Assembly (NCBI GenBank): GCA_050251055.1
Contig: JBFWNL010000009.1
Location: forward strand, 1-64,000
Source: Bacteriovoracia bacterium
Lineage (GTDB): Bacteria; Bdellovibrionota; UBA1018; JBFWNL01
Direction of reading: 5' to 3'
Length of the DNA: 64,000 nt
Shown: piece after piece, positions 54,090 through 60,830 of the stretch
Numbering within the stretch: the first letter of the stretch is position 1
Layout of the letters: every line of letters begins with the position of its first letter
Notes under the pieces: generated by a model
The model's input: only the letters and a program-made list of their open reading frames with translations
Databases searched by the model: none
What the model was told of the DNA's origin: nothing
Program-made: the position numbers and the translations under genes

Positions 54090-54731
54090 TTACTCAAGAA
54101 TCAACACCGCACGCACGGGTCCTGCGTCAAACCCTTTTAACTTGAGGGGAAAAGCACTGAGCACGTAATTGCGGTCGAAATCACGAACCCCGGAGAGGTC
54201 CAGCCCCTCCAATACGGACTGATCATTGCGAAAGAGTGCCTGATGACTCTCTAAGTGCTTCGAGTCGGCGGGGTCGATGGAAGGCGTGTCGATCCCCACC
54301 AGCACGACCCCTTTTTGATGAAGCTCGTCGACGAGTTCGGGAGAAAGCGAGTTGAAATCGGTTCGCCAATTCTGCGGATCGGGGAACGAGCCCGTTCGAA
54401 AGAGCACACGCGGGGCGCGGATCGGCGTTTTCACATCTTTCGGGAGAATACGAGCTCCGGGACCGCACTTCACCTCGACGACCTGGCAAGCCCCGTAATA
54501 GTAATGAAGCGAGCGTTGATCGATCCCCTGCCCGTTTGCATGGTAGTGAATCGGAGCGTCAGCGTGCGCACCGATGTGGCCCGTTGCTTTCAGCGTGGTC
54601 AAATGCAGGTGCGCGCCCCGGTGGATGTCGAGCAAGACCTCGCGCGAGAGCGGCGTATCGCCTGGAAACACCGCGGTCGCTTCCGAGACGAGCGGAGAAA
54701 TATCGATGAATTGCCAGTGCTCCCGTTTCAC
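54090..54731 (-). CDS. kynB: cyclase-family kynurenine formamidase-like protein
   Basis: VFPGDT, HIGAHADAPIH (HxGxHxDxPxH), GIDTPSID, LEGL, PVRAVL. Confidence 0.85.
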   Translation of the reverse strand: MKREHWQFIDISPLVSEATAVFPGDTPLSREVLLDIHRGAHLHLTTLKATGHIGAHADAPIHYHANGQGIDQRSLHYYYGACQVVEVKCGPGARILPKDVKTPIRAPRVLFRTGSFPDPQNWRTDFNSLSPELVDELHQKGVVLVGIDTPSIDPADSKHLESHQALFRNDQSVLEGLDLSGVRDFDRNYVLSAFPLKLKGFDAGPVRAVLILE

Positions 54732-54735
54732 CCGA

Positions 54736-56139
54736 CTACCCGTTTCTCACGCGGGCCACGACCTTAAACTCCACCGCGATCGGCGTCGGCAGGCTCCCCA
54801 CTTCGATGGTGGTGCGCGTCGCTTGGATCTTGGCGAAGTACTCCGCATAGATCTTATTGTAGGTCGGGAAATCTTGTTTCATGTTCGTCAGGTAGGCCTG
54901 CACATCGATAATGTCGTCAAGTGAACTCCCCGCGGCCTCAAGCACCGCCTTCACGTTGCGGATCACCGAATGAGTCTGCACGGCCACGTCATAGCTCACA
55001 ATATTTCCCTGGCCGTCGAGCTCGACGCCGGGGATCTTTTTCGTGCCTGGTTCGCGCGGTCCCACGCCGGAAAGGAAGATGAAATCGCCTTCACGGCGGG
55101 CATGCGGATAAGCACCGACCGGCTCGGCGGCCGAAGTGGCGTTGATCACCTGGGAATCCGACCGGCTTGAAGACGCGGATGCGGGCTGGGCATCGCCGGA
55201 CCGGGGCGCGGTCTCATTGGCTCCCGCCACGTCGGGCGCCTCTTCCGGCGGCATCGCCTTGCGGGGTTCGATCGCGCGCGTGGGCGTCAGCTGCACCACC
55301 GCTGCTCCCGTACCCCAAACCGGACCGTAGCCGAACACCTTGCCCGTGAAGTCGTTGCTTTCACCGCAAAGACCGCTCAACCACCAGATGCCCTTGAATG
55401 CCATGTCGCCATTGGCTTCACGCGCGAACTCACGCGCCACTTGCGAGACGTCCTCCAGGCGACCTTCCCCCAGCAGTTCACAAATCTTACGGTTCCACTC
55501 GTCGTCTTTTTCGGATGAAATACGATCCTGCTTCGGATCGATATCTTGGATATGAAAGCGATTCGAGAGCGACGAAACCAGCACGACGACCGCGCGTTTG
55601 CCCGCCTGCTTGAGGGCGTGCGCGGCGGCGCGGCCAAGCTCCAGCGTCTCGTCCTTCTCGGCATACATATTACAAGAAACCATCGCGGCCGGGATGCGGT
55701 TCGCCGGATTCAGGAACTTCTGGGCGACGATGGTCCCCGTATCAATGGGAAATCCGCGGTAATTGACCGGCGCGGCGTTATGGCCGAGCTTGCGGACCTC
55801 GTCGGCGTAAATCTTCGCAAACTCGGCGTCGACCTTGAATTGATACGGGAGCGATCCGTACTCGTACCAGTTTTGGTCGACGAGCTCCCACTCGGGCGCC
55901 GGATCGGCCTGAAAGAGGTAGCCGATCACGGAAAGCCATTGGGTGGAATAAAAGAGGATCAGGTCGGCGTCGCTCTTATCGATCTCCTCTTTGAGCTTCA
56001 GATAGGCCGCGCGCAGCTCCGCCCACGCGGGTGACTTTTCCGCCGCCAGGTAAATGTGGGGTAGCCCAGGCACGATCAAAGCCTGCTCGATCACTCCGCC
56101 CACCTTCCCACTCACTTTCCCGGTCTTAGGCGCGCTCAT
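54736..56139 (-). CDS. fusion of 2-aminophenol 1,6-dioxygenase alpha-like subunit and RidA-family (2-aminomuconate deaminase-like) domain
   Basis: N-terminal LigB-fold lacking iron ligands ([18 protein letters not shown]); linker; C-terminal [33 protein letters not shown]. Confidence 0.8.
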
Positions 56140-58465: not shown

Positions 58466-59592
58466 ATGCCTCCCACGGGAGTGCGCGCACCCGCCCCGAA
58501 AGTTCCGCCCATGAAATCGGCCGGATTAAATTCCCACTTGTCGCGATCCGGATCCCAGCTATCCCACGCCTGGATGGAGTGCATTCGATCGCGCAGATGC
58601 GGCGGGAGCGTTTCGGCCACGACGAACGGCTTCTGACGCTCAAGCGGATAAGGATTACGGAAGTTGAAACCCAGCACTCCGAGCGTCCAGCGCGCCAGGT
58701 ACCAGCTCGCGCGTGAATCCCAGCCGTGCGCGACCTTGATCACGATCCCTAGGCCCTTTGGGTAATCCGGATGAATCACGGCCAAGCCGAGCAAGCCATC
58801 TGCGCCTTCCTTTGCCAAAACCTTCCCGCCGCAGGACTTCAAGATCGTCGAATCCAGACGATTGAACCCGCCGATGAGGTCGGGATACTCCATCATGGAA
58901 TCCCAGATCCAGTCTTCTTCACGCGTAGTGGCTAAGTGGGCGTACAGGCGGGCGAGTTCGGTCACCGTCATCGAAGCGGTGGGTAGCCCGCAGCCATCTT
59001 TAGAAACGACCCGCGGTTCCCAGCGGGCGCCCAAAACCGTGCGTACGATGCGCAGATAATCCTGGAAAAATTCGTGGTGCGGCCAAACGTAGCCCACGCG
59101 CGACCACCCCTTCAGCTTACAGCCACGCAGAATCGCCGCGTGTTCGCCCGAGCACGGGTGATACCAGCGGCGCGGGCGGCGGCGCTGCTTGCCGAACTGC
59201 ATGAGCGGGAGCGCGAACGGGGTTTGCATCATCCCCAGCTCCCCTTCCGTCAAAATCGAGGTCACCGTGCGCGTGTGCTCCGTGTCGCCGTTATGGGAAG
59301 ACACCGAGATCGCCTTCTGCGGGCCGGTGAGCACCGGCGCAAGCTCCTGGGCGAAGACCTTCATCATGAAGGGTTTCATCATGGAGCGGCCGTAGCAAAG
59401 GACGTCGCCGCCATAGGAATAAATTACCTGATCGCCCGAAACCCACGAGATCGACCCGTGAATCGTGCACTCCGGCACGCCATTGCGGCGGTAATCGACG
59501 AGCGGCACCCAGCTGTTCGCGCCGATCGCATCGGAGTCCAAGATGGCTTGGGCGGAGTCGGAGGCCTTGCCGTTGCCCAGCTTCGTCATCAT
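58462..59592 (-). CDS. class 3 (Rhizobium-type) asparaginase-like hydrolase
   Basis: RSMMKP (SxxK), SHNG, PCSGEH (cf. NCSGKH), DGC, AKEGADG. Confidence 0.82.
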   Translation of the reverse strand: MMTKLGNGKASDSAQAILDSDAIGANSWVPLVDYRRNGVPECTIHGSISWVSGDQVIYSYGGDVLCYGRSMMKPFMMKVFAQELAPVLTGPQKAISVSSHNGDTEHTRTVTSILTEGELGMMQTPFALPLMQFGKQRRRPRRWYHPCSGEHAAILRGCKLKGWSRVGYVWPHHEFFQDYLRIVRTVLGARWEPRVVSKDGCGLPTASMTVTELARLYAHLATTREEDWIWDSMMEYPDLIGGFNRLDSTILKSCGGKVLAKEGADGLLGLAVIHPDYPKGLGIVIKVAHGWDSRASWYLARWTLGVLGFNFRNPYPLERQKPFVVAETLPPHLRDRMHSIQAWDSWDPDRDKWEFNPADFMGGTFGAGARTPVGGM

Positions 59593-60830
59593 TACGCCTG
59601 ACCCCGGACCGACACTTCGGCGGCAATCTGCTCCTGAAACACGCGCATCCGATGCAAAATCTGCGCGTTGTCGTGATTATTGAAATCGAACCAGAGCATG
59701 ACCCGATCACCGGGGTTGAAGCGCGCGCGCATTTGCTCGATGATCGTGCGCGGGTTGCCCGCCAAAGCATTGCCCACCGCGCTCTTCACGCGGGCCGGAT
59801 CGAGCGTGCCTTCCATCGCGCGCCAGTAGTTTTCGATCGCCCGTTGCGCTTCGTTCAAGGCGCGCGCATTCTGCTCGGCCTCCGAAACCCCCGGGTCGTC
59901 GTTGATGAACACCAGCACCGTGCGCGGCATGTGCGCGCGCGTCCACTTCCCGCCCGCGGGGTGAAAAGCGGCTTGCATGCGCTGATGCGTAGCTTCGATT
60001 TCGTGCGCCGGCGTAATCGAGAGGTTAAAAACCCCGCAAGGCAAAATGCGATTGGCTTGAATCTGCGTCTGCGCGTCGTGGGTGCCGAGCACCAGCTTCA
60101 GACGCTCCATTGGCGCCTCGCGCGGGATCACGCCCACCTTTTCAAACGTCCAGAACGGCGGGACGGGAATCTCTGCCATCGAAGCGCCCATACCCGACCC
60201 ATGCGCGGCCTGCACCTTCGCCCAATCTTCGTCGGCACGGAAATCCGCCCGGCGTAAAACTTTGGCCGTCACATCCTCGGAGCTGAAAACCTCACCTTTT
60301 AAAAAACGCAGGAAGATCTCGGTCGCTTCTTGAAAGAGCTTATTGCGCACCACCGGCCAGGCCGCGCGCTCCAAGGCCGAGCGTGGGAGAATGCCATAAG
60401 GCGCGTTCGAAAACGGGAAGCGCCCGGCCGCGAAGCCCAGATGCAGCTCGCGTTTTTCGGCGGGATCCAGCCCATGGTAAGTCATGAACGTTCGCACGGC
60501 CTCGGCGTGCGCGATCGGCCCGCCGTTACAAAGGATGTTGCGGATCGCGGAGCCGACGTGGATCCGCTTCGTGATGCCGAAAACTTTGTGCGCGAGTTGC
60601 AAAATATCGGTGTTGAGGCCGATCTCGCCCTTGAACTGGGGAATCACCGGCGCACGATTTTCTTTTTGTACTTCGCAAGAAAGGTGCGTTTCCGCGACCC
60701 AAGCGGTACCGTAACCCAACTCGTCGGCGAGGCGAACCTGGTCGAAGAAATTACGGAACATGACTGCTTCCGACGGCATGTATCCGTCAACGTCGGTCTG
60801 GCAGATAGAGAAGAAAACGTCGAATTGCAT
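59592..60830 (-). CDS. luciferase-like (LLM) flavin-dependent monooxygenase
   Basis: LADELGYGTAWVAETH, TKRIHVGSA, LGFAAG, GNPRTIIE, FQEQI LLM pattern. Confidence 0.85.
   Translation of the reverse strand: MQFDVFFSICQTDVDGYMPSEAVMFRNFFDQVRLADELGYGTAWVAETHLSCEVQKENRAPVIPQFKGEIGLNTDILQLAHKVFGITKRIHVGSAIRNILCNGGPIAHAEAVRTFMTYHGLDPAEKRELHLGFAAGRFPFSNAPYGILPRSALERAAWPVVRNKLFQEATEIFLRFLKGEVFSSEDVTAKVLRRADFRADEDWAKVQAAHGSGMGASMAEIPVPPFWTFEKVGVIPREAPMERLKLVLGTHDAQTQIQANRILPCGVFNLSITPAHEIEATHQRMQAAFHPAGGKWTRAHMPRTVLVFINDDPGVSEAEQNARALNEAQRAIENYWRAMEGTLDPARVKSAVGNALAGNPRTIIEQMRARFNPGDRVMLWFDFNNHDNAQILHRMRVFQEQIAAEVSVRGQA

Follow-up and report, generated by a model that had tools for sequence, protein, structure and literature searches.

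A candidate kynureninase-independent route of tryptophan catabolism via 2-aminophenol in a Bacteriovoracia bacterium

The classical kynurenine pathway (TDO, KynB, KMO, KynU, 3-HAO and ACMSD) starts with TDO and KynB and ends with a dehydrogenase, a RidA-type deaminase and a pair of FAA-hydrolase-family proteins. A second described system, the meta-cleavage of 2-aminophenol (amn genes of Pseudomonas sp. AP-3 and Burkholderia xenovorans LB400, cnb genes of Comamonas CNB-1), relies on the dioxygenase subunits AmnB and AmnA, a dehydrogenase, a RidA-type deaminase and nearby FAA-hydrolase genes. In the available portions of the published accounts, the source of its 2-aminophenol is nitrobenzene or chloronitrobenzene, unless the compound is added externally. 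A six-gene operon related to both systems occupies positions 54090-60830 of a stretch of 64,000 nucleotides (nt) from a Bacteriovoracia bacterium (assembly GCA_050251055.1, contig JBFWNL010000009.1), referred to here as the window. The window covers bases 1-64000 of contig 9 in an assembly of 3.77 Mb and 21 contigs that is 93.5% complete. Unlike the known meta-cleavage systems, this cluster includes KynB (relatives add TDO) as well as two further enzymes, a divergent luciferase-like oxidoreductase (LLM) and a class-3-asparaginase-like serine hydrolase (ASNL), while AmnA is fused to the deaminase. Compared with the classical pathway, a version of which is carried by relatives in the same phylum (e.g. 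locus L099), the start and the end are the same, and LLM, ASNL and AmnBA stand in place of KynU and 3-HAO. Sequence comparison makes it highly probable that the operon serves to degrade tryptophan via 2-aminophenol without kynureninase, and that LLM and ASNL bridge the two ends of the route. The exact chemistry, i.e. Baeyer-Villiger oxidation of kynurenine by LLM followed by the release of L-aspartate and 2-aminophenol by ASNL, is proposed with less assurance, as somewhat probable.

Other described systems provide comparisons for the two bridging enzymes. With the type II Baeyer-Villiger monooxygenases (2,5- and 3,6-diketocamphane monooxygenases), LLM shares a TIM-barrel luciferase-like fold and the proposed flavin-peroxide and migration chemistry; its substrate would, in contrast, be an aryl-ketone amino acid, and the likeness lies in the proposed mechanism, not in membership. 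With the class 3 L-asparaginases ReAV and ReAIV of Rhizobium etli, ASNL shares the PF06089 domain, the catalytic set and both metal cysteines, but it differs at the position of the metal-site lysine and by its context of tryptophan catabolism, the use of asparagine by enzymes of the ReAV/ReAIV type belonging presumably to an ansPAB-type context. The proposed succession of aryl ketone, aryl ester, phenol and dioxygenase has a parallel in the 4-hydroxyacetophenone pathway. In Pseudomonas fluorescens ACB, this pathway reportedly proceeds by Baeyer-Villiger oxidation of the aryl ketone, ester hydrolysis and ring cleavage of the phenol, and its Baeyer-Villiger enzyme is said to be of type I (FAD/NADPH) and its esterase an ordinary one, neither being homologous to LLM or ASNL. 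Conversion of kynurenine to 2-aminophenol and aspartate found no description in a full-text literature search, the reach of which stopped short of subscription journals and supplements.

One argument for the route comes from the distribution of its genes. An even set of 201 genomes from the phylum of the window and a second sample of 151 Acidobacteriota genomes were compared; since related genomes are not independent, the results are given as counts and not as statistics. An LLM orthologue (at least 52% identity) is present in 13 of the 201 genomes, together with an ASNL orthologue in 13/13 and AmnB in 12/13. A divergent LLM (35-41% identity) is found in 17 further genomes, accompanied by an ASNL-like gene in 16 (the exception is a genome only 73% complete) and by AmnB in 10. 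Altogether, ASNL occurs in 29 and AmnB in 22 of the 30 LLM genomes, and these 22 are the only ones among the 201 to carry AmnB. Kynureninase exceeds the cut-off in 43 of the 201 genomes and 3-HAO (PF06052) is present in 40, and the 30 LLM genomes have neither. Co-occurrence of LLM, ASNL and AmnB, anticorrelation with kynU and independence from kynureninase, all anticipated by a first-pass annotation of the window, are therefore what the phylum displays. In Acidobacteriota, an ASNL orthologue accompanies LLM in 6/6 genomes, and kynU is found in 0/7 genomes with an ASNL orthologue versus 20/151 overall, a count that includes one unpublished genome (G229). Members of one family can differ in which gene set they carry: family f22 comprises six LLM-type and three KynU-type genomes, family f18 two and one. 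In both families ASNL is a free-standing gene; the LLM genomes have it, and in the kynU genomes none was found. Outside family f15, ASNL is found in 0/29 kynU genomes, and it is found in 0/16 KynU-type metagenome loci with a free KynB. The plain reading of these distributions is that LLM, ASNL and AmnBA replace KMO, KynU, 3-HAO and ACMSD between kynurenine and 2-aminomuconate semialdehyde.

The source genome (G000) conforms to this pattern. A search of this 93.5% complete genome gave no TIGR01814 match for kynureninase and no PF06052 match for 3-HAO; the latter model works, as attested by its matches in 40/201 genomes in the same search. TDO lies outside the window, as stated at the outset, on contig 3 (C3:319208-320068), with no pathway genes beside it. 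Lower meta-cleavage genes had likewise been placed outside the window, and two FAA-hydrolase-family genes (C9:64320-65899; 4-oxalocrotonate decarboxylase/hydratase type) start 320 nt past its end, on the opposite strand and divergent from the operon.

Linkage of the genes extends over several phyla. Relatives of LLM were found in 320 species in a scan of one genome per species, and neighbourhoods were counted at the 80 best loci, from Bdellovibrionota, Acidobacteriota (Thermoanaerobaculia and Holophagae), Planctomycetota, Sericytochromatia and others. LLM has ALDH as a neighbour in 66/80 loci (41 of the 44 with at least 7 kb downstream), ASNL in 56/80 (34/44), AmnB in 47/80 (33/44) and KynB in 15/80 (14/44). 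Conservation of the linkage, to be checked in other genomes according to the first-pass annotation, thus holds in most of the 80 loci, and the association of pathway genes with LLM is far beyond chance. Clustering of neighbouring open reading frames (ORFs) places TDO immediately upstream of LLM in 17/80 loci, in keeping with the initial assignment of the cluster to tryptophan and kynurenine. The FAA-hydrolase pair is divergent and upstream of LLM in six loci. Two gene orders recur, LLM-ASNL-ALDH-AmnB-AmnA(RidA)-KynB, as in the window, and LLM-ALDH-AmnB-AmnA-ASNL-RidA. In many lineages, as in the window, the LLM and ASNL genes adjoin or overlap. One culturable organism with these genes is Sulfidibacter corallicola M133 (loci L007 and L086). 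Ten LLM loci are devoid of a local ASNL; in all ten genomes an ASNL orthologue (59-71% identity) is encoded elsewhere, in 8/10 within a three-gene module with AmnB and AmnA. Minimal loci of the type LLM-ALDH-RidA-KynB, without ASNL and AmnBA, were considered as a sign that LLM acts in the lower pathway; this was rejected, the AmnB-AmnA-ASNL module being present elsewhere in 5/5 of these genomes.

In the window, the operon consists of six co-directional, tightly packed genes on the minus strand, and the ORF listing upholds the gene order first described. LLM (59592-60830; 412 amino acids (aa), PF00296), the proposed oxygenase of kynurenine or N-formylkynurenine, comes first. ASNL (58462-59592; 376 aa, PF06089), the proposed hydrolase of a β-aspartyl-aryl amide or ester, comes second. 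They are followed by ALDH (57023-58465; 480 aa, PF00171), a predicted 2-aminomuconate-6-semialdehyde dehydrogenase of the AmnC/NbaE type; by AmnB (56126-57013; 295 aa, PF02900), the predicted β (catalytic) subunit of 2-aminophenol 1,6-dioxygenase; by a fusion of an AmnA-like α subunit with a RidA-type 2-aminomuconate deaminase (54736-56139; 467 aa, PF02900 and PF01042); and by KynB (54090-54731; 213 aa, PF04199), a predicted kynurenine formamidase of the cyclase family. From the ORF coordinates, LLM overlaps ASNL by 1 nt and ASNL overlaps ALDH by 4 nt; 9 nt separate ALDH from AmnB, AmnB and the fusion gene overlap by 14 nt, and KynB follows after 4 nt. The earlier statement that all junctions are below 10 nt is correct for four of them and does not apply to AmnB/AmnA, provided that AmnA does start at the ATG listed.

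The four lower-pathway and formamidase genes are the best anchored. Their original labels agree with Pfam, NCBIfam and the nearest solved structures. AmnB matches over its full length (residues 1-293) the entries 8ihg_A (435.3 bits), 3vsg_B (434.4 bits) and 7txy_B (397.8 bits), of which 8ihg and 3vsg are solved and assayed 2-aminophenol 1,6-dioxygenases. With such scores, the ring-cleavage substrate of AmnBA is most likely 2-aminophenol itself. In the fusion protein, the N-terminal part (around residues 15-284) matches the α subunits 7txy_A, 3vsg_A and 8ihg_B at 153-221 bits. PF01042 covers residues 336-463, and the closest solved relative of the RidA domain (around residues 326-467) is the 2-aminomuconate deaminase 6izh_A (96.5 bits over residues 326-462). 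ALDH reaches 577 bits with PF00171, and its closest solved relatives are the 2-aminomuconate 6-semialdehyde dehydrogenases 4u3w (521.7 bits) and 4i1w (517.8 bits); with TIGR03216, the model of the 2-hydroxy analogue, it scores 629.6 bits, below the cut-off of 693. KynB is closest to the solved kynurenine formamidases 4cog (141.5 bits) and 4cob, and its 180 bits with the equivalog model TIGR03035 fall below the cut-off of 223.

The proposed route would run as follows. TDO and KynB would produce kynurenine, as strong homology suggests. Luciferase-like monooxygenases typically act by nucleophilic attack of a flavin peroxide on carbonyls, and in such an oxidation the electron-rich aryl group is expected to migrate. 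As an enzyme of this kind, LLM would insert an oxygen atom between the aryl ring and the γ-ketone of kynurenine or N-formylkynurenine. The product would be the 2-aminophenyl β-aspartyl ester, possibly shifting to N4-(2-hydroxyphenyl)asparagine. The Ser-Lys apparatus of ASNL would then attack the β-carbonyl, with a β-aspartyl-enzyme intermediate, and free L-aspartate and 2-aminophenol. From here on strong homology is again the guide: AmnBA would convert 2-aminophenol into 2-aminomuconate semialdehyde, ALDH would oxidize the latter to 2-aminomuconate and the RidA domain would deaminate it to 4-oxalocrotonate. The FAA-hydrolase-family pair past the end of the window would take 4-oxalocrotonate further.

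Residues of ASNL are consistent with its place in this scheme. The protein scores 161.1 bits with PF06089 (cut-off 25), and its closest solved relatives, ReAIV and ReAV, are distant (59 bits to the nearest). According to the accessible part of the work on ReAV, the enzyme requires Arg47, Ser48, Lys51, Ser80 and Lys263, anchors the α-carboxylate and α-amino groups by Arg47 and the metal, and proceeds via a β-acyl-enzyme (PMC12292245). In the alignment, ASNL retains the equivalents of these catalytic residues, as R69-S70-x-x-K73, S99 and K261 (residue roles from the same part of PMC12292245). A KEGADG motif is common to 35 of 37 aligned pathway-linked ASNL sequences. The residues fit an enzyme that would bind the L-aspartyl head group and act on a different leaving group, and the genome context argues for a β-aspartyl substrate other than free L-asparagine.

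Comparative genomics supports the route as a whole; the Baeyer-Villiger step and the ensuing β-aspartyl hydrolysis are proposed on chemical grounds and plausible, and several findings weigh against them. The first concern LLM. Its match with PF00296 (37.9 bits for a cut-off of 27.9) covers residues 3-113 only. An AlphaFold model (pLDDT 84.4, pTM 0.86) displays a luciferase-like TIM barrel, and the top Foldseek matches are of the same fold (8cbb, E 1e-13; TMq 0.55-0.61; 13-19% identity). At this level of identity, LLM is about equally far from luciferases, RslO1, SsuD, F420-dependent reductases and 3,6-diketocamphane monooxygenase. The last (4uwm, 15% identity) ranks only 20th, behind luciferases, RslO1 and SsuD. 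A search for sequence kinship with solved proteins returned a single match in the PDB, which at an E value of 0.13 is uninformative. As modelled, LLM is a member of the luciferase-like superfamily without special kinship to type II Baeyer-Villiger enzymes, so that its assignment to this reaction is argued from the logic of the pathway and from the chemistry usual in its class. Binding of a flavin would likewise follow from the predicted fold alone. An FNR-like gene lies near LLM in only 9/80 loci and, as already stated by the first-pass annotation, there is no flavin reductase among the operon genes.

Two other features of LLM deserve mention. Residues 48-74 of the model have pLDDT values below 50, and within this part residues 66-75 are invariant across the family; the segment may be a mobile lid. 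Homologues are numerous (>3000 matches), the best 120 having 60-68% identity. In one Acidobacteriota genome (G275:C32:80605-81702), the match with LLM is in two adjacent pieces, residues 2-190 and 218-404, perhaps because of a frameshift or an assembly error.

The other contrary findings concern ASNL. Its metal site is C147/E150/C201 instead of the Cys135-Lys138-Cys189 of ReAV, with Lys138 replaced by Glu. Among 12 aligned ASNL orthologues, Glu replaces Lys in 9/12, 2/12 have Ser/His/Asp and 1/12 has Cys/Lys/Cys. The three positions covary by lineage: Cys/Glu/Cys in the window and most orthologues, Ser/His/Asp in L060, L062 and G110, and Cys/Lys/Cys, as in ReAV, which is the metal site of fusions between ASNL and KynB. 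All 22 genomes of families f15 and f25 whose ASNL gene was read (loci L099-L121) encode ASNL as the N-terminal part of a fusion with KynB; the fusion proteins have 505-555 aa, with one shorter reading of 439 aa (L121). Fourteen of these genomes are of the LLM type and eight follow the classical route (G009, G018, G027, G067, G082, G096, G135 and G180, from genera g32, g70 and g88 of f15). All eight carry kynU and 3-HAO, and none carries LLM or AmnB. In G096 the operon reads RidA-ALDH-FAH-FAH-3HAO-ACMSD-KynU-[ASNL-KynB], and a KMO-like gene adjoins kynU in three of the five classical fusion genomes examined (G009, G018 and G135). The ASNL catalytic motifs are intact in 8/8 classical-route fusions, and the ratio of ASNL to KynB domain identity is 0.846 among KynU-type pairs and 0.876 among LLM-type pairs. 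In the fusion tree, the classical type forms three separate clades. With intact motifs and similar relative conservation, the idea of a decaying relic was discarded; the domain is kept where the proposed substrate should be absent. ASNL is thus also found outside the new route. The initial interpretation is partly supported, namely in its kynureninase-free tryptophan route via AmnBA. Our reading is that the fusion traps the ASNL domain, which would have some second activity, perhaps that of an ordinary asparaginase. The classical-route fusions lower confidence in the ASNL step.

The fusions bear on the order of the first steps. LLM could act on N-formylkynurenine, ASNL would cleave the resulting 2-formamidophenyl β-aspartyl ester and KynB would deformylate 2-formamidophenol to 2-aminophenol; the formyl group would block the O-to-N acyl shift. 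Fusions often join consecutive steps, and ASNL is N-terminal to KynB in every f15 and f25 fusion; moreover, in 4/5 metagenome fusion loci (L142-L145 and L148) the fusion directly follows a divergent LLM. Against this order, the identical fusion exists in classical-route genomes, where KynB must act on N-formylkynurenine itself, and in most other lineages KynB is last in the operon or unlinked. Deformylation at this late stage is accordingly judged unlikely, with present data compatible with either substrate of LLM.

The same eight classical genomes raise the question of whether ASNL is the hydrolase of the route at all. It could fulfil a function common to both tryptophan routes, or be an ordinary asparaginase, with the LLM product decomposing by itself or processed by another enzyme. 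Intact-motif fusions in genomes without LLM and AmnB, the like conservation of the domain in both route types and the threefold separate origin of the classical type speak for this. What speaks for ASNL as the hydrolase is its presence in all 30 LLM genomes of the phylum sample but the one that is 73% complete, its absence from the kynU genomes outside f15, including the KynU-type members of f18 and f22 where no free-standing ASNL was found, and its adjacency to or overlap with LLM in many lineages. In addition, the anilide expected after the acyl shift is stable and would need an amidase. A role for ASNL elsewhere is thus regarded as slightly less likely still than late deformylation.

Further constraints on the preferred scheme, i.e. 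oxidation of kynurenine by LLM and hydrolysis by ASNL before ring cleavage, come from genomes that possess its upper half only. LLM and ASNL occur without any LigB-family gene in G110 and in four genomes of genus g55 (loci G110:C1:77220-79906 and 789704-791968; L100 in G043:C4). In G110, which is 99% complete on one contig, TDO lies next to KynB, and LLM next to ASNL. In the four g55 genomes, TDO adjoins ASNL-KynB and LLM, and ALDH is solitary. LLM and ASNL therefore appear as a working unit independent of ring cleavage. This fits the conversion of kynurenine to aspartate and 2-aminophenol, and such genomes would give off 2-aminophenol itself or a derivative without degrading it.

The upper-only genomes argue against a different order of events, in which LLM would be a non-homologous kynurenine 3-hydroxylase, AmnBA would open the ring of 3-hydroxykynurenine and ASNL would hydrolyse the C-C bond in the acyl-enamine so formed, yielding aspartate and 2-aminomuconate semialdehyde. 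Such an acyl-enamine would be a vinylogous asparagine, and the AmnB-AmnA-ASNL module apart from LLM, seen in 8/10 genomes without a local ASNL, would suit such a scheme. In the five genomes without a LigB-family gene, however, ASNL would have no substrate, AmnB has its 435 bits with enzymes acting on plain 2-aminophenol, and aromatic hydroxylation is unusual among luciferase-like enzymes. Ring opening ahead of the ASNL step is accordingly improbable. Least probable is that LLM makes 3-hydroxykynurenine and ASNL hydrolyses its aryl-ketone bond in a retro-Friedel-Crafts manner to 2-aminophenol and aspartate: this would provide ASNL with a substrate in classical-route genomes too (KMO-like gene next to kynU) and is compatible with the upper-only genomes, but chemical reasoning predicts no activation by the 3-hydroxyl, which lies meta to the acyl carbon, we know of no Ser-Lys hydrolase that cleaves such a bond, and 2-aminophenol would be a dead end in classical-route genomes, which are devoid of AmnB.

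Other genes recur around LLM or flank the operon. An SDR of 250-260 aa lies directly upstream of LLM in 43/80 loci (within L003-L082; e.g. L082:9222-10004). No orthologue of it was found in the source genome, where the best match has 32% identity, and it also occurs beside ALDH and RidA genes, at the KynU-type metagenome locus L193 (47%), at L150 (52%) and, more distantly, at the KynU-type locus L221 (35%). The SDR was for these reasons rejected as an essential partner of LLM or as its flavin reductase; its presence at KynU-type loci suggests that it belongs to the shared lower pathway and not to a new step. A gene for a FadL/TodX-type outer-membrane transporter (PF03349, cluster c10) is found upstream of LLM in 10 loci, mostly of Thermoanaerobaculia (L036, L039, L043, L044, L052, L059, L061, L067, L070 and L077); its product may be an uptake channel for an aromatic substrate. 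Directly after the FAA-hydrolase pair of the source genome comes an FMO-like flavoprotein monooxygenase (445 aa; PF00743, 222 bits; C9:65910-67247, i.e. L097:2910-4247, minus strand), which is not a recurrent neighbour across the 80 LLM loci.

Downstream of the operon, a GGDEF protein is encoded on the minus strand (52801-54069). Eight loci of the Acidobacteriota type (L004, L012, L036, L039, L051, L067, L070 and L077) likewise have GGDEF matches, with 29-33% identity, downstream of the cluster; this proximity may be due to chance or to a regulatory link. Upstream of the operon is a gene for a protein of 559 aa without a Pfam match, and two genes upstream is a TIGR02147/DUF4423 family gene (62681-63502, minus strand; 78 bits), which was not seen at the related loci. 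Scans of positions 52500-63800 gave five sigma-70 promoter sites versus 3.7 in shuffles and 15 intrinsic terminators versus 12.7, thus no excess of either; at the level of shuffles, these scans are uninformative on the operon boundaries.

If the proposed route is true, it has consequences for both the enzymes and the organisms. It would be a third exit from kynurenine, beside kynureninase and transamination, and to our knowledge the first luciferase-like Baeyer-Villiger reaction on a catabolite of a proteinogenic amino acid. Two large protein families without described function would acquire one. The class 3 asparaginase fold, under study for leukaemia therapy, would have a physiological substrate other than asparagine. 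Tryptophan would be a natural source of 2-aminophenol for AmnBA-type dioxygenases. This would bear on a question raised for the actinobacterial ARO microcompartment, for which the natural precursor of 2-aminophenol is stated to be unknown in the accessible part of the report (PMC10470539). Genomes with only the upper half of the route would harvest aspartate and release 2-aminophenol. Finally, the route matters for annotation, since genomes devoid of kynU and 3-HAO would at present be scored as incapable of this kind of tryptophan breakdown.

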